The notes under the pieces: model-generated
The model's database searches: none
What the model was told of the DNA's origin: nothing
Seen by the model: only the letters and a program-made list of their open reading frames with translations
Source: Alphaproteobacteria bacterium
Lineage (GTDB): Bacteria; Pseudomonadota; Alphaproteobacteria; Micropepsales; Micropepsaceae
Direction: 5' to 3'
Length of the DNA: 64,000 nucleotides
Assembly: GCA_003139615.1 (NCBI GenBank)
Contig: PLJH01000134.1
Span: 3,705 to 67,704, forward strand
Made by a program: the position numbers and the translations under genes
Part shown: positions 6,726 to 44,796 of the stretch, piece after piece
Layout: every line of letters begins with the position of its first letter
Numbering within the stretch: position 1 is the first letter of the stretch

Positions 6726-8170
6726 CGACCGAACGCGCGGCGAAGCTTGAGGCCGCGCTTGCAGCCGTGGAACACAAGCTGGTGCAGTCGCCGGATGTGC
6801 TCGATCTGTTGTTCGAGAAGGCGCAGCTGCTCTCATTGTTGGGGCAGGATGCGGACGCGCAGGCGGCCTATCTCGCCGTGTTGCAGCGCGACCAGACGCA
6901 TTTCGGCGCGCTGACGAATCTCGCATCGCTTGCGCTCTCATCCGGCCATCGCTCCGCGGCGTTGACCGCGTATCGTCAGGCGGCGGAAACGCACCCCAAT
7001 AATCCGACAGCCCTCATCAATTATGCGGGCGCATTGCTCGACGACGGCAACGCGGGTGAGGCGCGCGGGTTCTACGAGGCAGCGCTCAAGATCGGTCCCG
7101 CGTGTGCGGAAGCGCATCAGGGGCTGGCGCGCGCGCTTGAAGCGTTGGGAGACGGCGAAGCGGCCGCACCGCATTGGCGCGCGGGGTTCGCGGGGCACAA
7201 CATTGTCGAATGTCCTTATCGCGGGCGCGGCACGGCGCCGCGCGTCCTCCTTCTCGTCTCGGTTCGCAGCGGCAACATCCCGACGCATCTGATCCTCGAC
7301 GATCGGATGTTCGCCGTGACGGCGCTCTATGCCGAATTCTACGACGCGGCAAAGCCGTTGCCCGAGCACGATGTTCTGTTCAACGCGATCGGCGACGCCG
7401 ATTTGTGCGGCGAGGGGCTCGCAAAAGCGCGCGAGATCGTATCGCGCAGCCGCGCGCCCTTGATCAATCCGCCCGAAAGAGTCGTTCCCACAGGCCGCAG
7501 TGAGAATGCGAAACGTCTCGGACATCTCGACGGCGTGATCGCACCGAAGGTCGAGACGGTTTTCCGGAATATTCTTGTTTCGCCTGACGGCCCCGCACAC
7601 CTCGCGCAAGCCGGATTCGAATTCCCACTTCTGCTGCGTGCGCCGGGCTTTCACACAGGCCGGCATTTCGCGCGAGTCGAGCATGCGGATGATCTCGCCT
7701 CCGCGGCCCGACAAATGCCGGGCGAAACGGTGCTCGCGATTCAGTATCTCGACGCAGCGGGCGCGGACGGTCTTGCGCGCAAATACCGCGTGATGTTCAT
7801 CGACGGAAGATTCTATCCCGTGCACATGGCTGCGTCGCGCGACTGGAAGGTGCACTACGTCACCTCCGACATGGCAAGCCGGCTCGATCTGCGGACCGAG
7901 GAAGAAAAGTTTCTCAATGCCATGCCCGAAGTTCTCGGTCGCCGCACGATGGCTGCGCTGACGCGCATTCGCGATGCGCTTGGTCTCGACTATGGCGGCG
8001 TCGATTTTGCCGTGGCGCGTGACGGCAGCCTGCTGTTGTTCGAGGCCAACGCCACGATGACCATTCTTCCGCCCGGCCCCGACCCGATGTGGGACTATCG
8101 CCGCAGTGCCATCGCGCGCGTTCTCGATGCAGCGCGTCAGCTCGTGATCGACAGAGCGGTGTTGCGCTGA
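6722..8170 (+). CDS. TPR-repeat protein with C-terminal ATP-grasp (RimK-like) domain
   Basis: N-terminal TPR-like helices; C-terminal [10 protein letters not shown] and [10 protein letters not shown]...LFEANATM; TTG start overlaps the thiG stop. Confidence 0.8.
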
Positions 8171-20759: not shown

Positions 20760-20982
20760 GGGACCCCCAACGCAGATTGGTCTGCGTCGATGTTCTCTTC
20801 GCGAAAATCGACGCGTTGCGTCGCCACGCCCCACGGCGCCGCCCCGGTCGCCCGACCGATGACAGAAGATTAACCTGTCCGAAAACGACTGTGAAGTGGG
20901 AGAGCCCGGCCGGCCCCGAAAAAAACCAGGATATCCTATGTTGGTCGGCTGCGGACACCCGCGCGACCCGTACGGGTTCGTA

Positions 20983-23900: not shown

Positions 23901-24579
23901 CACCCTGCGCGGCGAACGACACGAGCCCGTCGCCCGTGAAGTCCACGGTGAATTTGTTCGCCGCACCCAGCGCGACCGTGCCGAGCTTCGCGTTCACCGT
24001 GCCGGTGTTCGTCGCATTCGGCGCAACGAGTGCAACCACGCCGCGGCTTGCCGCAGTGATGGCGCCGTTATTGACGACGGATGCGTTCTGTTTGCCGGCT
24101 TGTGTGAATTTGCCCGAGAGCAGATCGCTGTCCGAACCGTCGGTCGACGTCGCGATCAGCGAACCGACATTGACCTGCGCGCCTTTGCCGATGACGAGGC
24201 CGTTGCCGTTGATCAATACCACGCGCCCGTTGGCATCGAGCGTGCCGAGAATCTGTGACGCGCTTGCGCCGCCGATCCGGTTGACCGCGATGGCTTGCGC
24301 ATTCGGCTGGTAGAATTGCGTCGTCTGTCCACTGCCAATGTTGAAGCTCGACCAGTCGATGACGACGTCTTCGGATTTCTGGTTGACGCTCGTCTTGTTC
24401 GACGATGTCGAGATCGAAACCGATCCCGTCGTCGCCGCGCCGCCGACAGGATTGGCGGAGGCCGGCGCGACGGAGAGAGGCGTTATCGCCAAGAGACCGA
24501 TTCCGCAGGCAACAGCTACCGGAAGGCGAAACGAGGCGGACGATTTCAACGTAACGCGCAAGGAAATGGCAGACGACAT
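20983..24579 (-). CDS. Filamentous haemagglutinin-like exoprotein 2, paralogue of 17070-20759
   Basis: Near-identical N-terminal domain, GLUG repeats, same C-terminal LNVTAxTGIDLDGT...NSGSNVI. Confidence 0.88.
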   Translation of the reverse strand: MSSAISLRVTLKSSASFRLPVAVACGIGLLAITPLSVAPASANPVGGAATTGSVSISTSSNKTSVNQKSEDVVIDWSSFNIGSGQTTQFYQPNAQAIAVNRIGGASASQILGTLDANGRVVLINGNGLVIGKGAQVNVGSLIATSTDGSDSDLLSGKFTQAGKQNASVVNNGAITAASRGVVALVAPNATNTGTVNAKLGTVALGAANKFTVDFTGDGLVSFAAQGDVNARASAINTGLLSGANVSMTARAANGIATGIVNMSGIITAQGVENVGGTIYLNAGNGTLTTTGTLNAAGATGGGHIETSGETANFSGRITAGKGGQWNVDPEDLTIDSSAATTIDLALNGGTSVLEQTTSGAASGTGNQTSGEGDITVASALTWNSTATLTLDSYHSINIAAPITISGAGGLVLKTDDGGTGGVLSFDLGSSGFAGNVSYGTTNNGGTLAINSTNYTLVYSMTETQAINSNLTGNYALANSLDASGTTGWIPLGASGSGFTGIFEGLGNTISNLTVDLPTTGLVGLFGKANGTIRDLGLVGGSISGDDDVGGLVGLNFGTIDDSYATAAVNSSDGYGGGLAGVNNGGMIDGSFATGSVGSSGSVSSGIGGVTGYNTGTIENSYATGAVSASGSNDSDIGGLVGNGQGGVIEYSYATGAVSAGNSSYDVGGLIGANYATIDDSYALGAASGVHYVGGLAGTNDGTISATYSAGAVSGSTDVGGLVGDDFATAGHITSSYWDTHASGITNLSQGAGNVANDSGIAGETTAALQAGLPSGFSSLVWAIVPGVSYPYLQWQFNGAPQVVAGFTVASNGKTDVSGLDVSLLVNGESVTPAVDMNSGANGYYYLLLAPDTISNSGSPVFAYLTNGTPGNAYAGNMLGSDGDFEIEEGQLRVKSGASSATGLFRALNTAVGSNTGTDFLYTTSGGFAPNANLFIDDSAATFNINTDLDVGTGTLWLYDPTGSISESGDGAITAGLLRGTSENGVTLNGANDIARLGQFGNVGSGGFSLTNSDTLDVVGAVNAGTGDLSLITTANGIVIAGDLTAGGTVDLQAGSGIWQDPKSSVITAETLTGSANGATNLQGANSITDLGTFDVNDANFYLTNNQTLTVTGTVGAIGISLDTTTGDLVDSGALHANEMTLTSLLGEIYGTGNINATVLNVTADTGIDLDGTSNNIEHVKTDTTNSGSNVINTHDTAD

Positions 24580-24768
24580 GAAGGCCCCCCACAAGCAGGA
24601 GCAGTCTTGCGAGTGTCGCAGGCGAGACTGCTTCCTGGATTGATTCCGGAACGGAATGCGCAATCCCACCATGCGCAACGGCAGTTCAGTCTATTCGAGC
24701 AAACTTATCAACCCTGCGGCGGGCGCCTGCGCAGGATTGCGATCGTCTTTCGGATGCTGCGTAAGTGT

Positions 24769-27672
24769 CTAATCCCGCAGGCGAAACGGACGTTGCCACC
24801 AGCCTTTGCGTGTGGGCTGCTCGGGCGCTTGCGTTGCTGCGATTTGGGTCGTGGCAACCGGCGCAGGCGCTGCGGCCAGCGTTTCCTCGACTGCCGCCAC
24901 TCTGTGAGATGTCGCGGCAACTTCGATTTTTTCCACAACAGGTGCGGCATGGCGCTCGGGCGTTGGCTGTGCGGCGAGCGACCAGACAGGCGCGGACGGC
25001 GCATTCGGAGTCACGCTGGGCGCATCGAGGTTGACGCCGACGTCTTCGTGCGCGTTGTCGGAATGCGAAGCGTCGTCTTCGAACGCCTCGTTTTCATTGG
25101 CACTCGTATCGGCGTGAGCGCCCTCAAGGTGCGGAGCATCGTTGACGCCGAAGGCCTGACCGTCGCGCTGACCGCGTCCACGCCTGCGGCGGCGGCGCTT
25201 GCGGCGACCGCCTTCCCCAGGCGCGCCCTGCGCCAATTGACCTTGAGATTGAGGGCCCTGCAATTGCGCACCGTCGCGGTGCGGCTCGAAAGGCGCGTCG
25301 ACCGGCGCTGCGCCGTTCATTTCGCTTGCAACAGGCGAGGCGTTCTCGCCTTCGCCAAAATGCTGCGGGGCGATTGACGGAGCACCGTTGTTCTCAGATC
25401 CCACGGTGGGGCGGTCGCGATCGCGTCCACGCCGACGACGGCGGCGTTTACGGCGTCCGCCTTCGCCCTGAGGCTGACCGTCTGCGCGCGGTTGTCCTTC
25501 GCGCACTGGGCCGTCGCCACGAGGCTGTGTGTCGTCATGCGCCTGTTGCGGCCGCTCTTCGCCCGCATCCTCTTCATCCTCGACGTCGACTTCTTCGACT
25601 TCCGTTTCCTCGACTGTCTCGGGTTCGAATACCGGTTCCGGCGGCGGCGCGAGTTTGGGCCGATCGTCGGGTGTGCGCTGGCCGATCCGGTCGATTTCGA
25701 AATTGCCGGCGACGACGCCCTCTTTCGGCTCGAACTGGATGATAACGCCGTTGTCGGCTTCGATGCGCGCAAGCTCGCGGCGTTTCTGGTTTAACGTATA
25801 TACGGCCACATCAACCGCCACACGCACGACAAGCGTATAAGCGCGTTGACGTTGACCCTCTTCGTCGAGCGCGCGCAACACGCGCAGCGCCGTCGATTCC
25901 ACCGAACGCACGATGCCCTGGCCGCCGCAATGGGGGCAGGGGACTGTCGATCCGGCAATGACACCCGCGCGCAAGCGTTGGCGCGACATTTCGAGAAGGC
26001 CGAACTGGCTGATCTTGCCGATCTGGATCCGGGCGCGGTCGTTCTTCACCGAGTCGCGAATGCGCTTTTCGACATTGCGGTCGTTGCGGCCGTCTTCCAT
26101 GTCGATGAAATCGATGACGATCAGGCCCGCCAGATCGCGCAGGCGGAGCTGGCGACCGATTTCGTCCGCGGCTTCGAGATTGGTCTTGTGGGCGGTTTCC
26201 TCGATCGAATGCTCGCGTGTGGCGCGGCCGGAGTTCACGTCGATCGAGACGAGAGCTTCCGTCTGATTGATCACGATATAGCCGCCGGATTTGAGCGTGA
26301 CGGTGGGCGAGAACATCGCATCGAGCTGGGCTTCGATGTGATGGCGCTGGAAGAGCGGAACGGGTTCTTTATAAGGCTTCACGTTCTTCGCATGGCTCGG
26401 CATGAGCATGCGCATGAAATCCTTGGCGTTGCGGTAGCCGTCATCGCCTTCGACGATGATCTCCGCCACATCCTTGTTGTAGAGATCGCGGATGGCGCGC
26501 TTGATCAGGTCGCCTTCCTCATAGACGCAAGCCGGCGCGTTCGATTTGAGGGTGAGCTCGCGGATCGTGTCCCACATGCGCAGCAGATATTCATAGTCGC
26601 GCTTGATCTCGACCTTGGTGCGGTTCTCGCCCGCGGTGCGGATGATCAGGCCCATGCCCTCGGGCAATTCGAGCGCCTGTGCCGCCGATTTGAGACGCTT
26701 GCGGTCATTCGCATTGGTGATCTTGCGCGAGATGCCTCCCCCGCGCGGTGTGTTCGGCATCAGCACGCAATAGCGGCCTGCGAGCGAAAGATAGGTCGTA
26801 AGAGCCGCGCCTTTGTTGCCGCGTTCTTCCTTGACCACCTGAACCAGGATGATCTGCCGGCGTTTGATCACTTCCTGGATTTTGTAATGGCGCTTGCGGG
26901 TCCAACGCTGCTGCGGCCGTGAAGACTGCAGCGGCTGGGCAGGCTGCATGTCCTGCGAGGTCTCGCCGCCGGATTCCTGCAAGCCGTCGCCGGGCATCTC
27001 GGCAAATTCGGAATGCGGGTTTTCGAGACCGCCGTTTTCCGATGGCAGTTCCGAGTCCGCTCCCGGTGTTTCGTTGCCCGCAGCCGAGGCGTCTTCGAAG
27101 TGAGGCTGCTCGTCGGTCGACGACGCGTAATGCTCGGGCTGCGAGTTTTCGTTCTCGCTGCTTTCCCCGGCCTGCGTCTCGAACGAGTCATGCCGATGCT
27201 CATCACGGTGTTCATGCCCACCATCATGGTGCTCGTGCTCGCCGGACTCGTCTTCGTCCTCGTCGCGGTCGTCGTGCTCCGAGTCGTGTTCGGATTCCGA
27301 CCCTTCCTCGGACATTGCGTTCTCCTGCGCGGGAACGCTCATGGTCTCGACGGATTCGAATTCCTCTTCCGCGTGACGGCGCGCTTCTTCCTGCTGCTCG
27401 GCGAGAAGCGCCATCCGGTCGGCGACGGGGATTTGATAATAGTCGGGATGGATTTCCGAAAAGGCCAGGAAGCCCTGGCGATTGCCGCCATATTCGACAA
27501 AGGCCGCCTGGAGCGAAGGCTCCACGCGCGTCACCTTGGCGAGATAGATGTTTCCTTTCAGCGGCCGCTTGGTTGCGGCTTCGAAATCGAACTCTTCAAC
27601 CTTTTGACCGTCCAGGACGACGACCCGGGTTTCTTCCGGGTGGCTGGCATCGATGACCATACGTTTGGGCAT
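24769..27672 (-). CDS. rne: Ribonuclease E
   Basis: MPKRMVIDASHPEETRV, GNIYLAKVTRVEPSLQAAF, IDVNSG, DFIDM, CPHC zinc link, acidic and Arg-rich tail. Confidence 0.97.
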   Translation of the reverse strand: MPKRMVIDASHPEETRVVVLDGQKVEEFDFEAATKRPLKGNIYLAKVTRVEPSLQAAFVEYGGNRQGFLAFSEIHPDYYQIPVADRMALLAEQQEEARRHAEEEFESVETMSVPAQENAMSEEGSESEHDSEHDDRDEDEDESGEHEHHDGGHEHRDEHRHDSFETQAGESSENENSQPEHYASSTDEQPHFEDASAAGNETPGADSELPSENGGLENPHSEFAEMPGDGLQESGGETSQDMQPAQPLQSSRPQQRWTRKRHYKIQEVIKRRQIILVQVVKEERGNKGAALTTYLSLAGRYCVLMPNTPRGGGISRKITNANDRKRLKSAAQALELPEGMGLIIRTAGENRTKVEIKRDYEYLLRMWDTIRELTLKSNAPACVYEEGDLIKRAIRDLYNKDVAEIIVEGDDGYRNAKDFMRMLMPSHAKNVKPYKEPVPLFQRHHIEAQLDAMFSPTVTLKSGGYIVINQTEALVSIDVNSGRATREHSIEETAHKTNLEAADEIGRQLRLRDLAGLIVIDFIDMEDGRNDRNVEKRIRDSVKNDRARIQIGKISQFGLLEMSRQRLRAGVIAGSTVPCPHCGGQGIVRSVESTALRVLRALDEEGQRQRAYTLVVRVAVDVAVYTLNQKRRELARIEADNGVIIQFEPKEGVVAGNFEIDRIGQRTPDDRPKLAPPPEPVFEPETVEETEVEEVDVEDEEDAGEERPQQAHDDTQPRGDGPVREGQPRADGQPQGEGGRRKRRRRRRGRDRDRPTVGSENNGAPSIAPQHFGEGENASPVASEMNGAAPVDAPFEPHRDGAQLQGPQSQGQLAQGAPGEGGRRKRRRRRRGRGQRDGQAFGVNDAPHLEGAHADTSANENEAFEDDASHSDNAHEDVGVNLDAPSVTPNAPSAPVWSLAAQPTPERHAAPVVEKIEVAATSHRVAAVEETLAAAPAPVATTQIAATQAPEQPTRKGWWQRPFRLRD

Positions 27673-29575: not shown

Positions 29576-32020
29576 ATGAAGCGGCATCGGAAAGGCCGTA
29601 AGGGTATGTGGCGGCGGGTACTTCTTTATACAGGGCTGCTGTTTCTGTTCGTCGTGGTCGCCGGCGGGCTGACCGCTGCTGTCTACATCTATTCGTTCAC
29701 CCGCGACCTGCCGAGCGTCGAAGCGCTCCAGAACTATCAGCCCCCCATCACCACCCGCGTCTATGCCGGTGACGGCACGTTGTTGGGCGAGTACGCCCGC
29801 GAGCGGCGAATCTTCGTGCCGATCTCCTTCGTCCCGAAACTCGTGATCGACGCGTTCACCTCCGCCGAGGACAAGAATTTCTTCAGCCATCCGGGCATCG
29901 ATCCCAGCGGCATCATGCGTGCGGCCGTAAAGGACGTGTTCAACGTCATCCAGCACAAGCGGCTCGAAGGCGCATCGACCATCACCCAGCAGGTGGCGAA
30001 GAACTTCCTGCTCAACAGCGAAGTGAAATTCTCGCGCAAGATCAAGGAAGCGATCCTCGCAGTCCGCATCGACGCGACCTATTCGAAGCAGAAGATCCTC
30101 GAACTCTATCTGAACGAGATTTTCCTCGGACAGAATTCCTATGGCGTGGCCGCGGCCGCGCTCAATTATTTCGGCAAGTCGCTCGATCAGCTCGACATCG
30201 CGGAAGTGGCGTTCCTGGCCGCGCTTCCCAAGGCGCCCAGCAATTACGATCCGCGCACCAACAAGGCTGCAGCCCTCGAGCGCCGCAACTGGGTCATCGG
30301 GCAGATGGCCGAAAACGGATACATCACGGCGGAGCAGGCGCGCGACGCGATCGCAGAACCTCTGGTGACACAGTCGCGTCCGCTGGGTATCCAGGCGGTC
30401 GACGCGGATTATTTTGTCGAGGAAACGCGCCGTATCCTTTATGCAAAATACGGCCAGGCTGCGCTTTACGATGGCGGTCTCCAGGTCCGCTCCACGCTCG
30501 ATACGCGGCTCCAGAACTACGCCGTGAACGCGCTGCGCATGGGGTTGGTGCGCTACGACCGCCGCCATGGCTGGCGCGGCGCCGTCAGCAACGTCAACAC
30601 CAATAGCGATTGGAAAGATGCGCTTGCGAGCGCGGGCAACCAATCGGGCATCGAAACGTGGCGCGTGGCCGTCGTTCTCGGCTATGGCCCGGACAAATCG
30701 ACCGAGATCGGTCTGGACGACGGCAAGCGAGCCGAGATTCCCTTCAGCGAAATCCAGTGGGCGCGCAAGGAACTGCCGGGCGCGTCGGTTGGTGCTGCGC
30801 CCACATCGCCCGAAACGGTCGTCAAGGTCGGCGACGTGATCTATGTCGAGCCGGTCGATACCGCGGGCAATTACGGTTTGCGCCAGGTGCCGGAAGTGAA
30901 TGGCGCCATCGTCGCGATGGACCCGCATACGGGGCGCGTGCTGGCGCTGTCGGGCGGTTTCAGCTTTGCCTCCAGCCAGTTCGACCGCGCCATGCAGGCG
31001 GAGCGGCAGCCGGGTTCGTCGTTCAAGCCCTTCGTGTATGCCGCCGCACTCGACAATGGCTACACGCCGGTCACCAAAGTCGACGACGCGCCGATCTCGC
31101 TGCCGCAAGGCCCGGGACTGCCGATGTGGTCGCCGAAAAACTTCGAAGGCAAGTTTGCAGGCCCCACGACCCTGCGCCGCGGTCTCGAGCTTTCGATGGA
31201 CGCGATGACCGTCCGGCTCGCGTCCCAGCTCGGGCTCGACAAGATCACGCCGATCCCGATCCGCTTCGGCGTTTACGACAGCCTGCCGCCTTATTTGTCC
31301 AATGTACTCGGCGCGCAGGAAACGACATTGATGCGCATGACGACCGGCTATTCCGAGTTCGTCAATGGCGGCAAGAAAATCAACGCGACGTTGATCGACC
31401 GCGTTCAGGATCGCAACGGCGCCACCATCTATCGCCACGATCCGCGCGCGTGCGACGGCTGCAATGTCGCGACCTGGGAAGATCAATCCGAACCGATGTT
31501 GCCCGATACGCGGCAGCAGGTTCTCGATCCCACGACCGCATTCCAGATCGTGTCGTTGCTGGAAGGTGTCGTGCAGCACGGCACCGGCGTCGCCATCAAG
31601 GCGGTCGGCAAACCGCTGGCCGGAAAAACCGGAACGTCGAACGAGGCGAAAGACGTCTGGTTCATCGGCTTCTCGCCCGATCTTGCCTGCGGCGTGTTCG
31701 TGGGCTTCGACAATCCGCGCACGCTGGGACATCGCGAGCAGGGTGCTACGGTGGCAGCACCGATCTTCCGCGACTTCATGATGGGTGCTTTGGCGGACCA
31801 GCCGGGAACGCCGTTCCGGGTACCGCCGGGCATCGATTTCGTGTCGGTGGATTCGCATTCCGGCGCGCTTGTGAGCCCCGGCGCACCCGGCGCGATCCTC
31901 GAAGCATTCAAAGCAGGTACGGAGCCGGGCGTGGCGATCACCGACGCGACCGATCAGCCCGCGCAAACCAACAACGGTCCCGGTTCCACCGTGAGCCAGG
32001 GCACGGGCGGACTATACTAA
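29576..32020 (+). CDS. mrcA: Penicillin-binding protein 1A
   Basis: SAEDKNF, GASTITQQ, RKIKE, YLNEI; transpeptidase SSFK and KTGT. Confidence 0.97.
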   Translation: MKRHRKGRKGMWRRVLLYTGLLFLFVVVAGGLTAAVYIYSFTRDLPSVEALQNYQPPITTRVYAGDGTLLGEYARERRIFVPISFVPKLVIDAFTSAEDKNFFSHPGIDPSGIMRAAVKDVFNVIQHKRLEGASTITQQVAKNFLLNSEVKFSRKIKEAILAVRIDATYSKQKILELYLNEIFLGQNSYGVAAAALNYFGKSLDQLDIAEVAFLAALPKAPSNYDPRTNKAAALERRNWVIGQMAENGYITAEQARDAIAEPLVTQSRPLGIQAVDADYFVEETRRILYAKYGQAALYDGGLQVRSTLDTRLQNYAVNALRMGLVRYDRRHGWRGAVSNVNTNSDWKDALASAGNQSGIETWRVAVVLGYGPDKSTEIGLDDGKRAEIPFSEIQWARKELPGASVGAAPTSPETVVKVGDVIYVEPVDTAGNYGLRQVPEVNGAIVAMDPHTGRVLALSGGFSFASSQFDRAMQAERQPGSSFKPFVYAAALDNGYTPVTKVDDAPISLPQGPGLPMWSPKNFEGKFAGPTTLRRGLELSMDAMTVRLASQLGLDKITPIPIRFGVYDSLPPYLSNVLGAQETTLMRMTTGYSEFVNGGKKINATLIDRVQDRNGATIYRHDPRACDGCNVATWEDQSEPMLPDTRQQVLDPTTAFQIVSLLEGVVQHGTGVAIKAVGKPLAGKTGTSNEAKDVWFIGFSPDLACGVFVGFDNPRTLGHREQGATVAAPIFRDFMMGALADQPGTPFRVPPGIDFVSVDSHSGALVSPGAPGAILEAFKAGTEPGVAITDATDQPAQTNNGPGSTVSQGTGGLY

Positions 32021-32129: not shown

Positions 32130-32150
32130 ACGGCCAAGCCGCACGGTGCC

Positions 32151-32250
32151 AATGTGGCGATGGGTTGTGTGGTGCGCCCCGAAAGGCGACGCTTTTTCGC
32201 GAAATGTGCCTCAACCACAAACCGCAACACATAACCTGTCGCCGGAATCC
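32151..32250 (+). repeat. Island direct repeat, copy A (most diverged)
   Basis: AATGTGGCGATGGGTT...AGGCGACGCTTTTTCGCGAA...CCACAAACCGCAACACATAACCTGTCGCCGGAATC. Confidence 0.85.
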
Positions 32251-32295
32251 AAAAACTGTGAAAAACTCCTGGCTTGAAGGTGCTGCAATATGGCC

Positions 32296-33671: not shown

Positions 33672-34601
33672 CTATCCTTCTTCGAAGAAGTCCTCATCGA
33701 CACGCTGCAACTCAAATGTTTCTTCGACTTGGCAACCGACATTGAAGCGAACCATTAAGTCAGCAAGCCCCAGCCCATCGATCAGTACAATGCGCTTGCT
33801 GAGCTGCGCCGCGGTTTCTCGGGCATCTTTCGAAAAGTCAGACGTTGTAACAAACACGCCCTTCGTCGCCCTGACACGGTCTAGACCGCCGAAGAAATCC
33901 CGTATCGCGCCTGGGCCAATATTGTTGCCAGTCGCATACCGTTTGGCTTGAACATACACGCGGTCCAGTCCAAGGATGTCTTGATCGATCAGCCCGTCCA
34001 CGCCACCGTCGCCGGAGCGGCCGATCGCTTTGCCCGCATCTTCGACGCTGCCGCCATAGCCGATTTTCGTCAGTAGTCGTACAATTAGCCGCTCGAAAAA
34101 GTCCGGCTTCGCGTTTTGTATGCGATCGATCAACTCTGCCTTAAGTACGTCGGTGCTGCGGCGATGCGCACGGCGCAATAAATCTTCGGGCGTATCGGTA
34201 TCCTGATCCCGAACAGGCATCTGAGGGGTCGCGGATTCGGCGTTACGCGATTGGGACGCTCGAGTCCGCTCCTTGAATTCTTGATATTCTTTGAATTGTT
34301 CGAGATAGCGTCCGTCAATTTTTTCTAAACCGGCTTGCAGGGTGGACCGACCACGGTCAGTGAGTTGGAATACGCCCCTGCGTACATATTCAACAAGACC
34401 CGCCTGCTTCAGGTACGATTTTGCCCAATGAACTCGATTTGCAATTAACGTCTGCCGCCCGGATGGCAACATCACATTCCGTTCGTCGTCAGTCAGCCGA
34501 AGCTCCTCGGCAACGCGTTCGACGACGTCACTGATTGCTGCTGGACCACTCGCCACTGACCGCAGCACGGGAAGCATTAGCGCCTGATAGTCTGGTATCA
34601 T
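33672..34601 (-). CDS. mrr: Mrr family type IV restriction endonuclease
   Basis: MIPDYQALMLP Mrr_N start, NRVHWAKSYL, DGGVDG...VYVQAKRY catalytic D-QxK. Confidence 0.95.
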   Translation of the reverse strand: MIPDYQALMLPVLRSVASGPAAISDVVERVAEELRLTDDERNVMLPSGRQTLIANRVHWAKSYLKQAGLVEYVRRGVFQLTDRGRSTLQAGLEKIDGRYLEQFKEYQEFKERTRASQSRNAESATPQMPVRDQDTDTPEDLLRRAHRRSTDVLKAELIDRIQNAKPDFFERLIVRLLTKIGYGGSVEDAGKAIGRSGDGGVDGLIDQDILGLDRVYVQAKRYATGNNIGPGAIRDFFGGLDRVRATKGVFVTTSDFSKDARETAAQLSKRIVLIDGLGLADLMVRFNVGCQVEETFELQRVDEDFFEEG

Positions 34602-34832
34602 TTCCATCACACAATTCTGAAATGCCCTGCGTTGTATCAATTACTATAGGGGATGTCTCACGAACTAGGATCAGTCGACAGTTTGCCTATTCACCAGACG
34701 CGACGCCGCGCGAATTGATCGAGAATCCCCATCGTGTTGCCATAACCGTTTAAATTCCCCTCGTCACTTCCGCCGAGCTTGTTCCGCGGCGCCGATCGCC
34801 TGACGCATTCACAGCCCGCGACCTTCGCCTGG

Positions 34833-36011
34833 TTACGGCTTCACCCTGAAAACCGTTCCGCAGCTTCCGCCGGCGAAGCAGTCGACCTGACCTCCGCCGC
34901 CCACCGTGGTGCCGTAAAGTGTGCCGTTGACGTCGAGCAAAGCCGCCTGCGGGCCGATGCCGTCGTTGCCGCCCTTGAATGCGTAGACGACAGATTCGGC
35001 GCCTGCGGTGGTGATCGAATAGACGGTGCCGCAGCCTTCGCCGTTGCATCCGCTCCCGCCGCCGGAGTCGGTGGTGCCGTACAGCGTCCCGCCCACATCG
35101 ATCAGACCGGAATAGGGATTGGCGCCGTCGCTGCCGCCGTCGAAGACGTGAAGCGTGTTTTCCGCGCCTGCGGTCGTCACCGAATAGAAGGCGCCGCTGT
35201 CCGTCGTGCCGTAGAACACCCCGTCGACATCGATCAAGCCGCCATAGGGAAAGGAGGCGTTGCCCGAGAAGGCATAGACGATGTTCTCCTGGTCATTCGC
35301 CGTCACGGCATACACGGTGCCGCAGCCATTGCCGCCGCAGGCCGTTCCGCCGCCGTATACGGTCGTCCCGTAGAATGTTCCGCCGACATCGATCACGCCC
35401 GCATTTTCGGGTTGGCTGCCGTCGCTGCCGCCGGCAAACGCATGGATGACTTTTTCTTTGCCTTTCGGCGTGACCCAGAAAACCGTGCCGCAGCCTGCGC
35501 CGCCGCAGCCCGTTCCTCCGCCGTCCGTCGTGGTTCCGTAGAGCCGGCCTCCGACGCGCAGGAGTGTCGCGCCGGGCTGATATCCGTCGTCGCCGCCTTG
35601 GAAGGCATAGACGATCTTTTCGGTGCCATCCGGCGTCACCGAAAATACCGTCCCGCAGCCTGCGCCCCCACAGCCGGTTCCGCCCCCATAAGCCGTCGTG
35701 CCGTAGAGCAATCCGCCGACGTCGATCAGTCCGGCGCGCGGCGCCTCGCCGTCGCTTCCCCCATTGAAGGCATAGACCACATGTTCCACGCCTTTGGGTG
35801 TGACCGCGAATACGGTGCCCGAGTGGGTGGGGCCGCCTGCTTCCGTGGCGCCGTAGAGGAGTCCACCCATAGCGATCAGCTGACTCAGCGGAAGGGCTCC
35901 GTCACTGCCGTTCTTGAAATCGTAAATCGCACGTTCCGTGGCGGCGTTCGCAGGCGCAGCCATCTGGAAAACGACCGCAGCGGCACAGGCAGCCAGAATC
36001 GACTTCAACAT
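34833..36011 (-). CDS. Secreted tandem-repeat protein of the GloVer (Gloeo_Verruco) type
   Basis: Signal peptide then about 6 repeats of F.GGSDG..P...L....G.LYGTT..GG......GTVF.VT. Confidence 0.85.
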   Translation of the reverse strand: MLKSILAACAAAVVFQMAAPANAATERAIYDFKNGSDGALPLSQLIAMGGLLYGATEAGGPTHSGTVFAVTPKGVEHVVYAFNGGSDGEAPRAGLIDVGGLLYGTTAYGGGTGCGGAGCGTVFSVTPDGTEKIVYAFQGGDDGYQPGATLLRVGGRLYGTTTDGGGTGCGGAGCGTVFWVTPKGKEKVIHAFAGGSDGSQPENAGVIDVGGTFYGTTVYGGGTACGGNGCGTVYAVTANDQENIVYAFSGNASFPYGGLIDVDGVFYGTTDSGAFYSVTTAGAENTLHVFDGGSDGANPYSGLIDVGGTLYGTTDSGGGSGCNGEGCGTVYSITTAGAESVVYAFKGGNDGIGPQAALLDVNGTLYGTTVGGGGQVDCFAGGSCGTVFRVKP

Positions 36012-36339
36012 CGCGGTTGTCCTTCGTCCAAGTGTTCGCAGCGGGTCAAAGGACCCGGTCGGCGATTGCCTGCATTGTACCATGGAATGCCGAGCCGGCC
36101 TTCGTCCACGTACGAACAGCGGGACGCGCGATGATGGGAAACGCAATTGCTGTCGAGCATCAGCTCAGTCTACCAGAAAGGAAAGGTTCCTACCGGTTTT
36201 GAGTGCGAATGCTACGGAGAAATTCGAGATTGCGGAGGACGCGCATGGGGTGAACATTGGTCCAGTCACCATGAACAGCCAAGCAGCACCTCGGTCGCGA
36301 ACGGGATTTGAGCAGGAGAGAAGTACGATCGCGGGGGCT

Positions 36340-37482
36340 TCACCGGGGCCGTTCGGCTGTGTACGTGGCAGGCACCAATGGCGTTTTTTTCGCTTCGAGT
36401 TCGGCTTTCAGCGCTTCGATCTCGGCTTGCTGCGCCTTCAACGCCGCAACAAGCACGGCCGTCAGCTGCGCGTACCGGACACCTTCGAGCCTGCCATTGC
36501 TGTCATAGGCTGCCAGACGTGGGTCGATTTTCTGCACTTCTTCGGCAATCAGGCCTGGCTGCACCTTCCGGTCATAGGATGGATGTGTCTTCTGATTCCA
36601 GGTGTACCAGATCGGCTGGAGCTGCATCACTTCGGACAGCGCATCCTGGCCAATGCGCGATTTGACATTCTTGAATTCCGCCAGCGAAGAAATACAGCCC
36701 GCGGCATCCGCGCCAACCTGACCGGAAGATGCGTTCCAGCAAAGCGATTCGCCGGTTTGCGAACCCGGTGCGGAAAAGTAAATGGCGGACTTGGCCGTCA
36801 ACGACGCGATAAAAGTCGTCGGCCCGCCGAAGAGATTTTTTGCCGTGCTCGTATCGTGGACGGCATAACACGAACTGAACGTAATTGCACAATTGGTGTT
36901 GGCCTCCGAAATGTCGATTCCAAACCAGGTTTCATATCCGGAGTTATTGCCGGTCGGCATGTCGATATGCATGCCGATAAGGCCGAGCCTCTCATTTGGT
37001 CCGCTGACGGCAGGGCTGCCGCTAAGCGAGAGTTGACGTAAATCGTAAGTACAGGTCGTTGCGCAGTTCAAATTGCCGTAGGCATTGCCGAACGAGAGCG
37101 CGTTGATCTCATAGAAGTGTGGAGGAAGTGCCGCCGCTGCAACACCGGAGCCGTTCGAGAGGTCGTCTACTTCGTAATCCATCGCCGCGTAGCCACGGCC
37201 ACAGCACGAACCGGTCCAGCCGGAGCCCAGCGATAGGCCGACATCCAACCCTACATAGGAATTTAGTGCGCCGGAACCGGAGAGAACGACATGATTGTAT
37301 TGACCGAATGCAAATGCACTTGGCGCCGTCGGCGCCAAAGTAACGACTTCGTTGATTCCGTAAGCGTTATTGCTCCTTGGTGACGCCGCTCCTTGCACCG
37401 TGAACACGTCATTGGGAACATTCTGTGCGAGACACACAGGCGCGTACACGACCAGCGCCAGGGTGGCGAAAAGGACTCTCAT
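36340..37482 (-). CDS. Secreted protein with C-terminal intramolecular chaperone (Peptidase S74) domain
   Basis: Signal peptide; SSLAEFKNVK...LQPIWYTW...GLIAEEV...VRYAQLTAVLVAALK plus coiled coil. Confidence 0.85.
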   Translation of the reverse strand: MRVLFATLALVVYAPVCLAQNVPNDVFTVQGAASPRSNNAYGINEVVTLAPTAPSAFAFGQYNHVVLSGSGALNSYVGLDVGLSLGSGWTGSCCGRGYAAMDYEVDDLSNGSGVAAAALPPHFYEINALSFGNAYGNLNCATTCTYDLRQLSLSGSPAVSGPNERLGLIGMHIDMPTGNNSGYETWFGIDISEANTNCAITFSSCYAVHDTSTAKNLFGGPTTFIASLTAKSAIYFSAPGSQTGESLCWNASSGQVGADAAGCISSLAEFKNVKSRIGQDALSEVMQLQPIWYTWNQKTHPSYDRKVQPGLIAEEVQKIDPRLAAYDSNGRLEGVRYAQLTAVLVAALKAQQAEIEALKAELEAKKTPLVPATYTAERPR

Positions 37483-37591
37483 AGCGGCTCCAGCTTGTTC
37501 AGCCCTTACGGAATTTGCCGCATCAGCTGTTAAGACATAGTAACGGAGATGTACGCAATTTGAGAAACGAATTCAGAAAGAACAGAATGCG

Positions 37592-37608
37592 AATGTGGCG
37601 ACGGGTTA
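37592..37608 (+). repeat. Island direct repeat, copy B, 5' part (intron 5' exon)
   Basis: AATGTGGCGACGGGTTA directly before the intron GTGCG. Confidence 0.85.
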
Positions 37609-39547
37609 GTGCGCCGGGAGACCGGCAGAAAGTAGGCGGTGAGAGTCCGCTGCAGTGAAGGAGGAGCGATCCACACTGGCCCCGAGTCATGCGCGTTGCA
37701 TCGCGAGGTGCAGGGCGAAGCGTTGACAGGGGAAGATGCAGGCCAGCCATTGAGCGGCGAAAGCGCCTATCCCGGATGCCGATGTTGTTAACCTGATAGA
37801 AGGCGACACGGGCACGACCGATATCGCGAGGACGTGCACGATCCGGCGTCGTCTGAGACCCTGGCATGCATCGACGCTTTCTGCACGGGAACCGGGAGGT
37901 CTCCAAGCTTACCTCGCGCGGTCGTGCGCGAGGCATCAACGGGAAGGTGATGAACCGAAAGCCGATGAAACGAAGCGTGGAGAAGTCGGACACGCCGATA
38001 GTACCTGTGAAGCGTGCGAACAATGCGGACTTGTCCTCCGGAGCCTTGGCGAAGGAGGAGCAATCCGCAACGGAGTGCGTGGAGGGAAGCGGCGTGAAGG
38101 AGAGAAATGCGGACTTGCAAAGCACGCTCCGGACGCAGAGCCGGGTCGGCGTGTCACAGGCGCAGGAACGCATACGAGAAGCGATCACCAGAAACGAACA
38201 GGAGCAACTGACAGCGCTCCTCCATCACGTGACTGTCGACGGGTTGCGCGCGGCATTCTTCGGTTTGAAGCGCGATGCGGCGCCCGGCGTGGATCGCGTG
38301 ACATGGAAGGAGTACGCGGACGGGTTGGAAGAGCGGCTTGCCGATCTTCACGGCCGCGTACATCGCGGAGCGTACCGGGCGCTGCCGTCGCGACGGAAGT
38401 TCATTCCGAAGCCGGACGGCAGATTGCGACCGCTCGGCATCGCAGCTCTGGAAGACAAGATCGTCCAGTCGGCGATGGTGGCGATCCTGACGCCTGTCTA
38501 CGAGGCGGAGTTCCTGGGGTTCAGCTATGGGTTCCGGCCCGGGCGCAGCCAGCACAATGCGCTGGATGCGCTCGCATTCGGAATCGCAAGACGAAAGGTG
38601 CGATGGGTCCTCGACGCCGACATCCAGTCGTTCTTCGACCGGATCAGCCATGAATGGTTGGTCAAGTTCGTCGAACACCGGATCGGCGACAAGCGCGTCA
38701 TCCGCTTGATCCGGAAATGGCTCAAGGCAGGCGTGCTTGAGGACGGCATCGAGATCGAGACGACGCAAGGAACGCCGCAGGGCGCTGTCATCAGCCCGCT
38801 GCTGGCGAACATCTACCTGCACTATGTCTACGATCTCTGGGCTCAACAGTGGCGCAAGCGGCAGAGTAACGGCGACATGATCGTCGTGCGGTGCCGACGA
38901 CACCATCGTCGGGTTCGAGCACCGTAGTGACGCAGAGAAGTTCTTGAAAGACTTGCACATCAGACTGGCGCAGTTCGGCCTGAACTTGCACCCCGAAAAG
39001 ACACGGCTGATCGAGTTCGGCAGAGATGCCATCGACGACCGTGCCCAACGGGGCGAGGGTAAGCCCGATACGTTCGACTTCCTCGGCTTCACGCATTACT
39101 GCACGAGAAAGAAGGACGGAACGGGCTTCAAACTCGGCCGCAAGACACAGGCCAAACGCAAACGCGCCAAGCTGAAAGCGATCAAGGACGCTCTGCGAAG
39201 GAACATGCACAAGCCGATCGACGAGCAGGGGCGTTGGCTGGCGGCCGTACTGCGAGGCTACTTCGCGTACTTCGCAGTGCCGACCAACAGCCCGTCACTA
39301 TCGGCATTCCGCCAACAGGTGAAAGAACGCTGGCTTCGCGTCCTGCGACGCCGCAGTCAGCGTTCGATCCTCACGTTCGAACGGATGCAGAAAATCGTCG
39401 ACCGGTATCTGCCTGTCCCGCACGTCTTACATCCGTGGCCCGAACAACGCTTCCTCGTCACTCACTCGACTTAAGAGCCGGATGCGGGAATCCCGCCAGT
39501 CCGGATCTGTGCGGGGGGCGCTCAGCAATGAGCGTCCCTACCGCGAC
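37609..39547 (+). mobile_element. Group II intron (RT/maturase, no endonuclease domain)
   Basis: 5' GTGCG; domain V GAGCCGGATGCGGGAATCCCGCCAGTCCGGATCTG from 39475; domain VI ending CCCTACCGCGAC; excision restores the repeat sequence. Confidence 0.95.
37950..39474 (+). pseudogene. ltrA: Group II intron reverse transcriptase/maturase, frameshifted at YADD
   Basis: RPLGI, SYGFRPGR, DADI, GTPQG; CGG-T-GCC-GAC-GAC at 38889-38901 lacks 2 nt of the Tyr codon; frame continues ADDTIVGFE; start approximate. Confidence 0.9.
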
Positions 39548-39632
39548 AGCGTCGCATGTCGGTAGGCGACGCTTCTTCGCGAGCCGCGCCTCCGCCACAA
39601 ACTGCAACACATCACCCGTCGTCGGAATCTCC
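39548..39632 (+). repeat. Island direct repeat, copy B, 3' part
   Basis: AGCGTCGCATGTCGGTAGGCGACGCTTCTTCGCGA...CCGCCACAAACTGCAACACATCACCCGTCGTCGGAATCTCC. Confidence 0.9.
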
Positions 39633-39682
39633 CGCTCCCAGCGTTGTCGCCGGTCCCCGGACCGGCCGCAAGCCGACCGCAC

Positions 39683-40438
39683 TTACTGCGCGATCGCCTG
39701 TCCGGACATGACAGTGCCGGTATCGGTTTCAAGCACCAGCAGCTTCTTGCCGGCGCTCACCGCGACCGAGACGAAGTTGTAGGTCTTGCTCTTGTAGGTG
39801 ATCTGCGCACTGCCGGTGCAATTGGAGTTGGCAGTGTAGGTTCCCGTGAGCTTGTGCGACGAAATCGCGCCGTTTTCGCTGAAGGTGTCGGTGGCGGTGG
39901 CATTGCCTTTGCCATCCAGTGTCAGCCGGCCCACAACCGACACGGCGGTATCGGGCGTTGCGATCTCATGCCCGTCGACGTGCTTTGCAAAACTCTTCGT
40001 TTTTCCGGTGAGACCGCAAACGGTGACGCCCTGCGCGTATCCCTCGCCCGACTCCGTGTAGCCCGTGTCCGTGCGGATCAGCTCGAACTCCGCATTCGCA
40101 TTGTCCAGCACGATATTGTAGTGGCTGACGGCGCTTGTCTGGTCCACGAACGTAGCTGCGCCCGTGCAATCGCCGGCGATCGAATATGTACCGGTCACGG
40201 TGAGGGTTTGGATCGTTCCATTGGCGCTTTGCGTGCCGGTTCCCGTCAGTCCGCCCGAGCCGTCCGAATCGATCTGAAAGACTCCTGCGCCAAAAATCCC
40301 CGTAGAGGTGGAGCCGCTCGCAAGAACGCCGTAAATACCGCTGAAGCTCGCGTTGGTGCAAGCCGCCGCTGCGGGCTCGGCGACGGCGAACGCCGATAGC
40401 GCCATGACAGCCCAGCCGAACATTTTCCGGATATGCAT
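39683..40438 (-). CDS. Secreted hypothetical protein with two repeated beta-rich domains
   Basis: Signal peptide, SD GGAGAAGG; duplicated motif GTYSIAGDCTG / GTYTANSNCTG. Confidence 0.8.
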   Translation of the reverse strand: MHIRKMFGWAVMALSAFAVAEPAAAACTNASFSGIYGVLASGSTSTGIFGAGVFQIDSDGSGGLTGTGTQSANGTIQTLTVTGTYSIAGDCTGAATFVDQTSAVSHYNIVLDNANAEFELIRTDTGYTESGEGYAQGVTVCGLTGKTKSFAKHVDGHEIATPDTAVSVVGRLTLDGKGNATATDTFSENGAISSHKLTGTYTANSNCTGSAQITYKSKTYNFVSVAVSAGKKLLVLETDTGTVMSGQAIAQ

Positions 40439-40576
40439 ACGCCTTCTCCCCCACAAATGCTGCCAATAGATATCATCCGACACTCGCCGGACGACCCCTG
40501 ATTGAGGCAGAAAATACTGCATTTCTGAAGTACGCGGAAGCCCCAGCGGCCGTTCTCGTCGCGGCCACCGCACCCG

Positions 40577-40809
40577 AACGTGGCGACGGGTTAAGCGTTG
40601 CGCGTCGGAAGGCGACGCTTCTTCTTCGCAAACTGCGCCTCCGCCACAAACGGCAACACATCAGCTGTCGTCGGAATCTCCAGTCTCCGGAATCTCCGGT
40701 CACAGACGCAACCTGTTATTGGGACATGACGACGAGCGGCATCACCATTCCGACGCCAGCCACGGGAAACACGCGCAACGAACCCGGCATCACGGGCCCG
40801 AGCACGACG
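40577..40809 (+). repeat. Island direct repeat, copy C (long form)
   Basis: Aligns with 44574-44796 over ~230 bp including GGAATCTCCAGTCTCCGGAATCTCCGGTCACAGAC and GGGAAACACGCGCAACGAACCCGGCATCACGGG. Confidence 0.92.
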
Positions 40810-42014: not shown

Positions 42015-42041
42015 CGAATTCGGGTGTGTCCCTTCTTCCGG

Positions 42042-42958
42042 GAAATACGGGGACGTCTAATCTATTTCCAAATGCAACCACAGTGATGCGTTGCGATTGC
42101 TGCAGCGCAATTCGGGGGACGCTTAATCTATTTTCAAATCTTGTCGTGGTCTGCGCCGACGACAAACCGACACGGGATTCCGGCTCGATAGGCCGTCGTC
42201 GACCTTACGCCGACAAGGCGCGTGGCGATATATTTTGGTCATGGCTCGTCTCGCTCGCATCGTCGTCCCCCGATGTCCGCATCACGTTACCCAGCGCGGC
42301 AATCGGCGCGAGCCCATTTTCTTCGAGGTCGGCGACCAGGAAATCTATCGCGATCTTCTCGCCGAACATTGCAGCAAATCGTCGGTCGAGGTCTGGGCCT
42401 ATTGCTTCATGCCAAACCACGTTCACCTCATTCTCACGCCAAACGACGCCTCGGGTCTCGCGCGGGCATTGGGCGATACGCATCGACGCTACACCACGTT
42501 CGTCAACGCGCGAGGGCGCTGGAGCGGGCATCTTTTCCAGAACCGTTTCGCCTCCGTCGCGATGGACGAAGCCCATCTCATCGCCGCCGTGCGCTATGTC
42601 AGCCTCAATCCCGTGCGCGCAAGGCTGGTGGCGCGTACGGAAGAATGGCCATGGTCGAGCGTTCGCGCCCATCTCGCCGCGCAAGACGACGAACTCGTTG
42701 CGGTGGCGCCGGTTCTGTCACGCGTGCCCGATTTCGAGTCCCTCATCGCGCCGGATGACGGCGACGAGCGCGCCTTTGCGAACATTCGCGCAGCCGAAGG
42801 AACGGGCCGGCCGCTCGGCAACGCGCAATTTATCGAAGGCCTCGAGCGGATTCTCGGCCGCACCATCGCCCGGCGCGCGCCGGGTCGCAAACGAAAGAGC
42901 GGCGATGACGACACGCCGCTGCTCTTGTAACGAAATGGATTAGACGTCCCCGTATTTC
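42042..42958 (+). mobile_element. RAYT-type HUH transposase element bounded by 27-bp inverted repeats
   Basis: GAAATACGGGGACGTCTAATCTATTTC (42042-42068) versus the reverse complement of 42932-42958: one mismatch; extra degenerate copy at 42109-42135. Confidence 0.9.
42241..42930 (+). CDS. Y1 HUH transposase (REP-associated tyrosine transposase / IS200-like)
   Basis: HHVTQRGNRR, YCFMPNHVHL (HUH), LFQNRF, RYVSLNPVRA (catalytic Tyr), WPWSS; frame intact. Confidence 0.93.
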   Translation: MARLARIVVPRCPHHVTQRGNRREPIFFEVGDQEIYRDLLAEHCSKSSVEVWAYCFMPNHVHLILTPNDASGLARALGDTHRRYTTFVNARGRWSGHLFQNRFASVAMDEAHLIAAVRYVSLNPVRARLVARTEEWPWSSVRAHLAAQDDELVAVAPVLSRVPDFESLIAPDDGDERAFANIRAAEGTGRPLGNAQFIEGLERILGRTIARRAPGRKRKSGDDDTPLLL

Positions 42959-44420: not shown

Positions 44421-44573
44421 GGTCTTATACGAACTGGATTCGAACTGGATTGGAGTTTGGGGTCAGCGTGCGAATTGGTAGCGTAGAAGGAGTTTGTGGC
44501 GAGGAGTTGAGAAAGCGCTTCTTTGCGAGTGCTTTGCCGGAACCGGATTTGAAGTAGCGTTCCAGACTGGGCG

Positions 44574-44796
44574 AATGTGGCGACGGGTCAGGCGTTGCAC
44601 GTCGGAAGGCGACGCTTCTTCGCGAACTGCGCCTCGGCCACAAGCTGCAGCACATCACCTGTCGTCGAAATCTCCAGTCTCCGGAATCTCCGGTCACAGA
44701 CCCACCCTGTTATTGGGACATGACGACGAGCGGCAATCCGAGCCGGGTGCGGGAAACACGCGCAACGAACCCGGCATCACGGGTCTGAGCACGACG
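44574..44796 (+). repeat. Island direct repeat, copy D (long form)
   Basis: High identity to 40577-40809. Confidence 0.92.

Follow-up and report, generated by a model that had tools for sequence, protein, structure and literature searches.

A complete group II intron is placed exactly within one copy of a recurrent palindromic repeat in a 64,000 nt stretch of DNA, hereafter the window, from an alphaproteobacterium of the family Micropepsaceae (assembly GCA_003139615.1, contig PLJH01000134.1, positions 3,705 to 67,704). The window holds four copies of the repeat (A to D), and copy B carries the intron. We consider it very probable that the element is a compact, mobile group II intron, IIC-like and without an endonuclease, which arrived by retrohoming in one arm of this intergenic repeat, an imperfect palindrome of about 105 nt. 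Diverged members of the repeat carry near-identical introns at the same position, in either arm, and sister introns with an altered exon-binding site 1 (EBS1) are found in related palindromes. The intron RNA reads seven bases of its target, GGGTTA/A (a slash in a target or junction sequence marks the insertion point throughout), via EBS1 and EBS3 and without an EBS2. The coordinates of all features are collected in Table 1.

Boundaries and integrity of the intron

The intron starts with GTGCG at 37609 and ends with CCGCGAC at 39547 (GAC at 39545–39547), and this interval displays the 5′ GUGYG and 3′ AY boundaries, the AGC triad of domain V and the bulged adenine of domain VI. The Rfam model of domains 1 to 4, RF02005, aligned over its full length (model positions 1–225) to 37642–37861 with a score of 189.2 bits (gathering score 49), and the model of domains V and VI, RF00029, aligned to 39473–39547 with 41.6 bits (gathering score 40). 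With 341 nt before the ATG and 73 nt past the stop codon, the ribozyme falls within the size of approximately 400 nt without the open reading frame (ORF) that marks a small ribozyme. When 37609–39547 was excised, the flanks joined to give GTGGCGACGGGTTA/AGCGT, which is identical to copy C (40580–40598) at 19 of 19 positions; the chance expectation for a match of this type with up to three mismatches is 0.02. An earlier reading made from the letters alone (the sequence-only reading) had placed the intron precisely within the repeat and had pointed to copy C as the surviving unoccupied target. The first statement holds by the restored match and by the agreement of the boundaries with Rfam and with relatives, and the second by the perfect and empty target in copy C, which is empty in metagenome run X2 as well.

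A contig from X1, an independent peat-metagenome run, covers 37000–40200 with zero differences, and the 5′ junction is also crossed by contigs of runs X2 and X6, hence the insertion is not an assembly artefact. Joints in the metagenome runs that skip 1939 nt were considered as a possible empty allele of copy B and were rejected, as they corresponded to copy D or other paralogues aligned to B.

Exon recognition by EBS1 and EBS3

Relatives of the intron were collected by three routes: a protein search limited to one genome per species, which yielded 80 loci; retrieval of closer proteins together with their contigs; and an exact scan of metagenome contigs for the first 20 bases of the intron, which yielded 120 stretches. 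The set used for EBS1 and EBS2 covariation comprised 166 distinct intron/5′-exon pairs with very diverse exons, and the set used for EBS3 comprised the 85 pairs that included a 3′ exon. Exon positions −1 to −6 each covaried with exactly one intron column, in order from 37789 to 37794, with mutual information of 1.0–1.2 bits and Watson-Crick or G-U pairing in 84–95% of the pairs. The sequence-only reading had proposed that TAACCT at these positions pairs with the last six 5′-exon bases and forms the EBS1 loop, and this was borne out to the base by the Rfam structure, the fold and the covariation. The resulting helix between EBS1 and its intron-binding site (IBS1) has six base pairs in the window's intron, including one G-U pair at exon position −6. 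Exon position +1 covaried with a single column, 37854, with mutual information of 0.99 bits and 95% of the pairs complementary. EBS3 of IIB and IIC introns is found on the 3′ strand of the basal domain I stem, as its lone unpaired base, and 37854 occupies such a position (Table 1).

No column of domain I covaried with exon positions −7 to −14 among the 166 pairs, the best mutual information being at most 0.37 bits with approximately 50% pairing, which is background. The same reading had offered TCGC near 37700, facing an upstream GCGA, as an EBS2. This candidate was ruled out: the bases form the closing part of a conserved hairpin with a GCGA (GNRA-type) tetraloop that stays constant whatever the exon and does not covary with it. 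A second candidate EBS2 loop, AUCGCGAGG at 37822–37830, likewise showed no covariation with the exon.

Probable homing to diverged members of the repeat

A near-identical relative, on an unrelated contig from another metagenome (L142), is 99.74% identical to the window's intron over 1941 nt and has an intact ORF of 508 aa. The two differ only by 37797 T>C, by two extra bases and a substitution in L142 at 38890/91, and by 38922 C>T. The exons of the L142 copy, CAATGAGGCGACAGGTTA/AGTGTTGCA..., lie within a palindrome that is 59% identical to copy B. An initial hidden Markov model (HMM) of the repeat included L142 and was thus circular; a model rebuilt from copies A to D alone recovered the L142 palindrome at E=1.5e-18, in the opposite orientation, and the intron there occupies the arm that corresponds to the right arm of the window's repeat. 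As the introns are 99.7% identical in hosts that are 59% identical, the intron must have moved recently rather than been inherited together with the repeat. A stray fragment of domains V and VI from a related intron was also noted on L142 (reverse complement), downstream of the repeat and about 110–210 nt past the intron.

Further occupied sites were evident in the metagenomes. The intron contig of run X2 had a depth of 28 against 9.5 for the flank and an intact YADD motif, which suggests about three copies. A second 5′ junction in the same run, ...CTGGACGACGGGTTA/GTGCG, reveals at least one extra occupied site that shares at least 10 nt of the arm beyond IBS1, and a different 3′ junction, CGCGAC/AGTGTTGCAGTTGCGGT, continues into repeat-like sequence (runs X2 and X4). 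A sister intron, P0001, with 92% protein and 90% nucleotide identity, was present on ten contigs with about six different 5′ flanks, always inserted at GAATNCGGTGACAGCGGC/AAYGTTCCCC, which belongs to the 5′ arm of a different palindrome (...GGGGAACGYTGCYGCTGTCACCGWATTC). The EBS1 loop of P0001 is changed to match this target, and direct and inverted clusters of the target unit are found nearby. Contigs L091–L094 of Rhizomicrobium sp. carry an 86%-identical intron at GAAATCGGCGACGCCTTA/C, in the middle unit of an array of tandem direct repeats of approximately 89 nt; every unit of the array carries GAAAYCGGCGACGCCTWA (L091 5539–5556, 5628–5645 and 7613–7630), and the units on both sides are empty targets. 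A related intron of the 85–86% class is located at GTGGCGTCGCCTTA/C on the forest-soil contig L095, which has in addition a second, inverted 5′ intron fragment from domain I (7773–8027, minus strand) with its own 5′ exon, AATTTGGTGACGCCTTA/.

Across these targets the geometry of insertion is constant, 18–19 nt into the 5′ arm of the receiving strand, at many independent sites and in either arm. A motif at −18 to −7, GAAW-N2-GGYGAC, is likewise constant in the targets of close relatives while IBS1 varies and EBS1 follows it; the motif is present on both arms of the repeat copies, and no RNA covariation with it was observed. The suggestion of the sequence-only reading that this intron lineage homes to the repeat is upheld by the L142 copy in a diverged repeat, by the extra metagenome junctions and by the sister intron at about six loci. 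The flanks of homologues divide by distance: the close homologues keep the repeat, whereas distant ones (at most 60% identity) lie in unrelated sequences, each with a matching EBS1.

An intron that goes to any GGGTTA/A heptamer, with no preference for the repeat, would be compatible with an RNA code of 7 nt that occurs at chance frequency in the window and with the single intron found there, and within the window alone the case for a repeat preference is thin. The outside evidence is much stronger and supports the preference: a 99.7%-identical intron occupies a diverged copy of the repeat family on L142, at least one further occupied site has at least 10 nt of arm beyond IBS1, the sister intron takes the equivalent palindrome position at about six loci, and the −18 to −7 motif is kept across targets with different IBS1 sequences. 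We consider such a chance landing improbable.

The palindromic repeat and its genomic setting

Copy B, once spliced, is 71–87% identical to copies A, C and D over approximately 105 nt, and all four copies are located between ORFs and share one orientation within 12.5 kb. RNAalifold, applied to the four copies and the L142 homologue, returned a common long hairpin with five compensated pairs, consisting of a 10-bp outer stem (GGCGACGGGT with ACC(Y)GTCGYC) and an inner stem (G.GTTGC with GCAAC.C). The arm motif GAWYNNGRCGAYRG had nine matches in the window against 0.68 expected; seven of the nine fall in repeat copies, whose two arms carry it on opposite strands. Inside the repeat, in the 3′ exon (+2 to +30), a small hairpin precedes a T-rich run, GCGTCGGAAGGCGACGC TTCTTCTTCG. 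The repeat is best described as an imperfect palindrome of approximately 105 nt that appears to be either a doublet of inverted units resembling repetitive extragenic palindromic (REP) sequences or a palindrome resembling a miniature inverted-repeat transposable element (MITE), and not an attC site. The possibility that it is the 3′ end of a gene (minus strand, peptide ...EIPTTGDVLQFVAEAQFAKKRRLPTRNA before the stop) was rejected, as the peptide is not kept in the L142 homologue and the conservation is palindromic, not codon-wise.

The repeat was found neither in Rfam, even at E<5, nor in a plasmid collection, and apart from L142 the HMM built from copies A to D detected no other copy in approximately 1.2 Mb of fetched loci. 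The same metagenomes contain at least one additional copy beyond the window, with comparable depth, and about 5–6 copies were seen overall. No target-site duplication was visible at the repeat copies, and no REP-associated tyrosine transposase (RAYT) or other transposase was identified. The four copies belong to a variable stretch between mrcA (penicillin-binding protein 1A, 29576–32020) and a ClC channel gene, which is followed by prfB. Its genes include one for an Mrr nuclease, one of tail-fibre type and several that lack known domains; none of the ORFs scanned, which did not include every small ORF, had an integrase or recombinase domain.

Table 1. Features of the intron, its target site and the palindromic repeat, in window coordinates.
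Feature	Position	Strand	Description
Complete group II intron	37609..39547	+	1939 nt, GTGCG...CGCGAC; Rfam RF02005 and RF00029; ends align with about 160 relatives; excision restores the repeat
Conserved 5′-exon motif GAATGTGGCGAC (−18 to −7)	37591..37602	+	Outer end of the repeat arm; GAAW-N2-GGYGAC in the targets of all close relatives
IBS1 (GGGTTA)	37603..37608	+	Last six 5′-exon bases; pairs with EBS1 37794..37789; covariation
EBS1 (UAACCU, DNA TAACCT)	37789..37794	+	8-nt terminal loop of domain I hairpin 37778–37804; Rfam structure, fold and covariation
EBS3 (U)	37854	+	Lone unpaired base, 3′ strand of the basal domain I stem; pairs with exon +1; Rfam structure and covariation
RT/maturase reading frame	37950..39474	+	508 aa if read through; broken by a 2-nt deletion and one substitution at 38890/38891 (Tyr codon of YADD)
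Domain V	39475..39507	+	33 nt, AGC triad; RF00029 and fold
Domain VI	39510..39547	+	Bulged branch-point A at 39540, eight bases from the 3′ end; RF00029 and fold
IBS3 (A)	39548	+	First base of the 3′ exon
Repeat copy A	32149..32255	+	Unoccupied; degraded target GGGTTG/T; best hairpin (17-bp outer stem)
Repeat copy B, left 19 nt	37590..37608	+	5′ exon side
Repeat copy B, remaining 89 nt	39548..39636	+	3′ exon side
Repeat copy C	40575..40683	+	Unoccupied; perfect target GGCGACGGGTTA/A
Repeat copy D	44572..44678	+	Unoccupied; degraded target GGGTCA/G

Several other features of the region were noted. Copies C and D share a further stretch of approximately 170 nt past the repeat (40621–40809 and 44615–44796) at 93–96% identity, and the 4-kb segment between them is thus bounded by direct repeats of approximately 235 nt; no recombinase gene was found in it. 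Within the same part of the window, 27-nt inverted repeats (42042–42068 and 42932–42958, 96% complementary) bracket an 863-nt segment with an ORF of no known domain (42026–42943). The 5′ flank of L142 is 76–92% similar to these ends, which look like those of a small mobile element common to both organisms. A 437-aa ORF on the minus strand (34833–36146), without a Pfam match, consists of tandem repeats of roughly 165 nt (55 aa) rich in GG/YG motifs, and adjoins both the Mrr-type nuclease gene (33672–34640) and a gene with a phage tail-fibre C-terminal chaperone domain (36340–37482). Farther upstream, two neighbouring minus-strand genes of approximately 1250 aa each (17070–20834 and 20983–24678) encode two-partner secretion (TPS) exoproteins, each with a TPS secretion domain and GLUG motifs; the pair adjoins rne (RNase E, 24769–27672).

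The reverse transcriptase and decay of the window's copy

Domain IV carries two ORFs in different frames (37866–38927 and 38944–39474), which when read through encode a reverse transcriptase (RT) with a Pfam RVT_1 match at 2e-41. The intron-encoded protein is approximately 493–508 aa long with an N-terminal extension of roughly 90 aa. No endonuclease domain was found; Pfam detects RVT_1 only, and the protein stops shortly past the X/thumb region. Its best matches among solved structures (PDB) are IIC RTs, namely GsI-IIC (1.5e-46) and those of Eubacterium rectale and Roseburia intestinalis, with the IIC enzymes scoring 162, 145, 144 and 138 bits and the IIB protein T.el4h (133 bits) and the IIA protein LtrA (123 bits) close behind.

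At the YADD region the window reads GTGCGGTGCCGACGAC where all relatives read GTGCGCTATGCCGACGAC. The loss of 2 nt in the YADD codon shifts the frame, and the window's copy therefore cannot supply an RT of its own; any mobilisation or splicing would have to occur in trans. The identical lesion is carried by the X1 contig, in which the intron is not collapsed with other copies. The ribozyme has a single difference from the intact L142 copy, at 37797, where a G-U replaces a G-C pair in the EBS1 stem. Both genes that flank the intron are encoded on the opposite strand (36340–37482 and 39683–40573). This antisense position in an intergenic spacer, where the intron would very probably do little harm, forms part of the explanation that we favour.

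Proposed mechanism and points that weigh against it

A lariat bound to the RT would reverse-splice into the DNA strand carrying GGCGAC-GGGTTA/A, and a nascent strand at the replication fork would then prime cDNA synthesis; priming from the fork is suggested because the protein has no endonuclease domain. Reverse splicing of a lariat-RT complex into DNA and priming by nascent strands are both known for endonuclease-less introns (PMC4424553, PMC5894124). A mildly positive plus-strand GC skew hints weakly that the intron lies in the lagging-strand template, as expected of this route. Seven bases cannot give the observed specificity, and therefore something else must contribute; the extra specificity could come from GAAW-N2-GGYGAC at −18 to −7 or from the structure of the arm, probably read by the protein. 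The palindrome may also aid homing via single-strand exposure, a state that the sequence-only reading had supposed to be frequent in the repeat. The window's copy would later have lost 2 nt in the YADD codon, which would have ended its autonomous movement.

A number of observations weigh against retrohoming of an IIC-like intron into a palindrome arm. The motif at −18 to −7 could be merely the conserved end of homologous target elements and not be read by the intron at all. In the hairpin form of the repeat, four of the six IBS1 bases are paired within the stem and would compete with EBS1. The canonical upstream hairpin of the IIC type is absent, the stem partner being downstream. GGGTTAA has three intact sites in the window against 2.3 expected, and two of these are outside the repeats. 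The hint that GC skew gives on the strand is weak, and splicing, mobility and priming are all deduced from sequence. Finally, the intron-encoded protein is likely to be of class C, judged from its matches rather than from a reference tree, and the RNA family is unlike that of the Oceanobacillus iheyensis intron.

Comparison with known introns

Like the group IIC introns B.h.I1, GsI-IIC and that of O. iheyensis, the window's intron has a compact ribozyme, lacks an endonuclease domain, and uses EBS1 and a single EBS3 base without EBS2; it is also intergenic and associated with a palindrome, and its best solved protein relatives are IIC RTs. It differs from them in several respects. The IBS1-EBS1 pairing of IIC introns is short, at 3–4 bp (PMC7923331), whereas here it has 6 bp and all six positions covary; IIC introns insert after a stem-loop in the 5′ exon, whereas this one is inside the 5′ arm of the palindrome; and the O. 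iheyensis ribozyme belongs to Rfam RF02001 (D1D4-3) (PMC3965019), whereas domains 1 to 4 of the window's intron match RF02005. The length of its protein, about 493–508 aa with the N-terminal extension of roughly 90 aa, is a further point of difference. No mapping of Rfam D1D4-6 to an intron class was found in the literature. Relatives in Sinorhizobium meliloti and Burkholderia cenocepacia point tentatively to class C, and class C introns have been catalogued for B. cenocepacia (PMC3001079).

These likenesses leave room for a canonical IIC intron inserted after an intrinsic terminator or inverted repeat, which would account for recognition by EBS1 and EBS3 without EBS2, for the small hairpin and T-rich run within the repeat, and for a 58%-identical relative on Burkholderia plasmid pBCJ2315 that directly follows a palindromic SOS-box-like sequence. 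That hairpin and T-run are in the 3′ exon, however, downstream of the insertion point, and no stem-loop-like sequence ends at IBS1 in the 5′ exon, which makes a canonical insertion of this kind quite improbable.

The IIC-attC introns of the S.ma.I2 lineage are similar in setting: an endonuclease-less intron of IIC type occupies an imperfect palindromic repeat that recurs between genes, and lies antisense to them. The repeat could on this ground be taken for an integron-type attC site, or part of a cluster of attC sites lacking an integron integrase (CALIN), and an attC likeness had been implied by the sequence-only reading. Its length of approximately 105 nt is attC-like, GTTAAGC fits the GTTRRRY consensus, the antisense position with respect to neighbouring genes is that of IIC-attC introns (PMC7923331), and the four copies have one orientation within 12.5 kb. 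The likeness does not survive closer comparison. The GTTRRRY-like heptamer sits in the 5′ arm on either strand, the reverse of the attC order of RYYYAAC 5′ and GTTRRRY 3′; the insertion motif is GGGTTA/A and not TTGT/T, which is where IIC-attC introns insert in R″ (PMC7923331); no integrase occurs among the scanned ORFs; up to four genes, on both strands, separate the repeats; and EBS1 spans 6 bp, not 3–4, with a correspondingly longer IBS1. We regard an attC site with an intron of the IIC-attC lineage as very improbable.

The nearest parallel in behaviour is RmInt2 of S. meliloti, for which either terminal inverted repeat of ISRm17 serves as a homing site (PMC5894124), just as the window and L142 copies occupy opposite arms of their palindromes. 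RmInt2 is by contrast a class D intron with IIB-type RNA that uses EBS2, and its host is a full insertion sequence and not a 105-nt palindrome. In Pseudomonas putida KT2440, two of nine copies of a group II intron are located at REP sequences (PMC1525189), again a mobile element at short extragenic palindromic repeats in direct and inverted clusters. The association in the window differs from the KT2440 case in being exact to the base and explained by EBS1 and EBS3, with no link to a RAYT or transposase found.

Precise loss of group II introns via cDNA recombination is known in principle, yet an intron present in an ancestral repeat, copied along with it and then lost precisely from copies A, C and D is scarcely credible, as introns 99.7% identical in oppositely oriented host repeats 59% identical require recent intron movement.

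Distant relatives and abundance

More distant members of the family occupy other kinds of site. At loci L005–L080, from metagenome-assembled genomes of Acidobacteriota, relatives about 55% identical occur in many copies per genome, with the 5′ end about 340 nt upstream of the RT match. Their 5′ exons end in CAT-N5-9-(T)TCTCCT(T)/ and their 3′ exons begin with T. CTCC is found within the last 8 nt at 57 of the 66 distinct sites, and at 49 of these 57 an ORF of at least 80 codons starts on the opposite strand 12–14 nt away (with ATG in 47). From the frequency of CTCC and the spacing of the opposite-strand starts we conclude that this lineage integrates in antisense orientation, directly upstream of the Shine-Dalgarno sequences of many different genes, with AAGGAG(A) as its EBS1. 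No description of such Shine-Dalgarno-antisense insertion was found in the literature searched.

Other relatives that share the first 20 bases of the window's intron are nested in mobile-element sequence (L111, L133, L138, L156, L167, L172, L183 and others; L104, L113, L122, L171 and L213; L047 and L053). Some of these lie in domain I of another member of the intron family (...GGCCAGCCATTGAGCCGCG/), some lie in a different RT gene, within its conserved motif ...D(I/L)xxFF, and some come directly after another intron, giving tandem pairs. The 58%-identical intron of plasmid pBCJ2315 of B. cenocepacia J2315 (L217) has its 5′ end at approximately 1144, right after TACTGTATGTTTGTACAGT, the LexA/SOS-box-like palindrome, and lies between imuA and the gene for an SOS-response-associated peptidase. 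In runs X2, X6, X9 and X15 the domain V/VI segment of the window's intron (39461–39567) reached a depth of up to approximately 1000, as compared with approximately 10–60 over the remainder of the intron; in these peat communities the segment is common to a very large population of related introns.

A wider picture, which we put forward tentatively and think rather doubtful as a whole, is that of an IIC-like lineage with a 6-bp EBS1 and EBS3, no EBS2 and a 12-nt motif, GAAW-N2-GGYGAC, read by the protein. Such a lineage would track the arms of REP-like palindromes on either strand and retarget by changes of EBS1 alone, and its distant members would have acquired new targets, namely the antisense side of the Shine-Dalgarno sequences of many genes, domain I of other introns, and RT genes.

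Significance

For genome annotation, the element is an ordinary decaying retroelement in an intergenic repeat, and the "island repeat" of the sequence-only reading is a palindromic REP- or MITE-like unit and not attC. The intron is a clear if fairly ordinary instance of a bacterial retroelement that homes to repetitive DNA, and the kind of site is a familiar one. It offers a fully worked natural example of site choice by an endonuclease-less IIC-like intron, in which EBS1 and EBS3 are fixed by covariation over more than 150 relatives, and it cautions against reading an EBS2 into IIC-like introns. With a vacant site (copy C), an unbroken donor sequence (L142) and an inactive copy all available, the system lends itself directly to a mobility assay. 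For group II intron biology, it presents a 6-bp EBS1 without EBS2 and targets in both arms of a palindrome; the motif at −18 to −7 may mark a protein-DNA contact.

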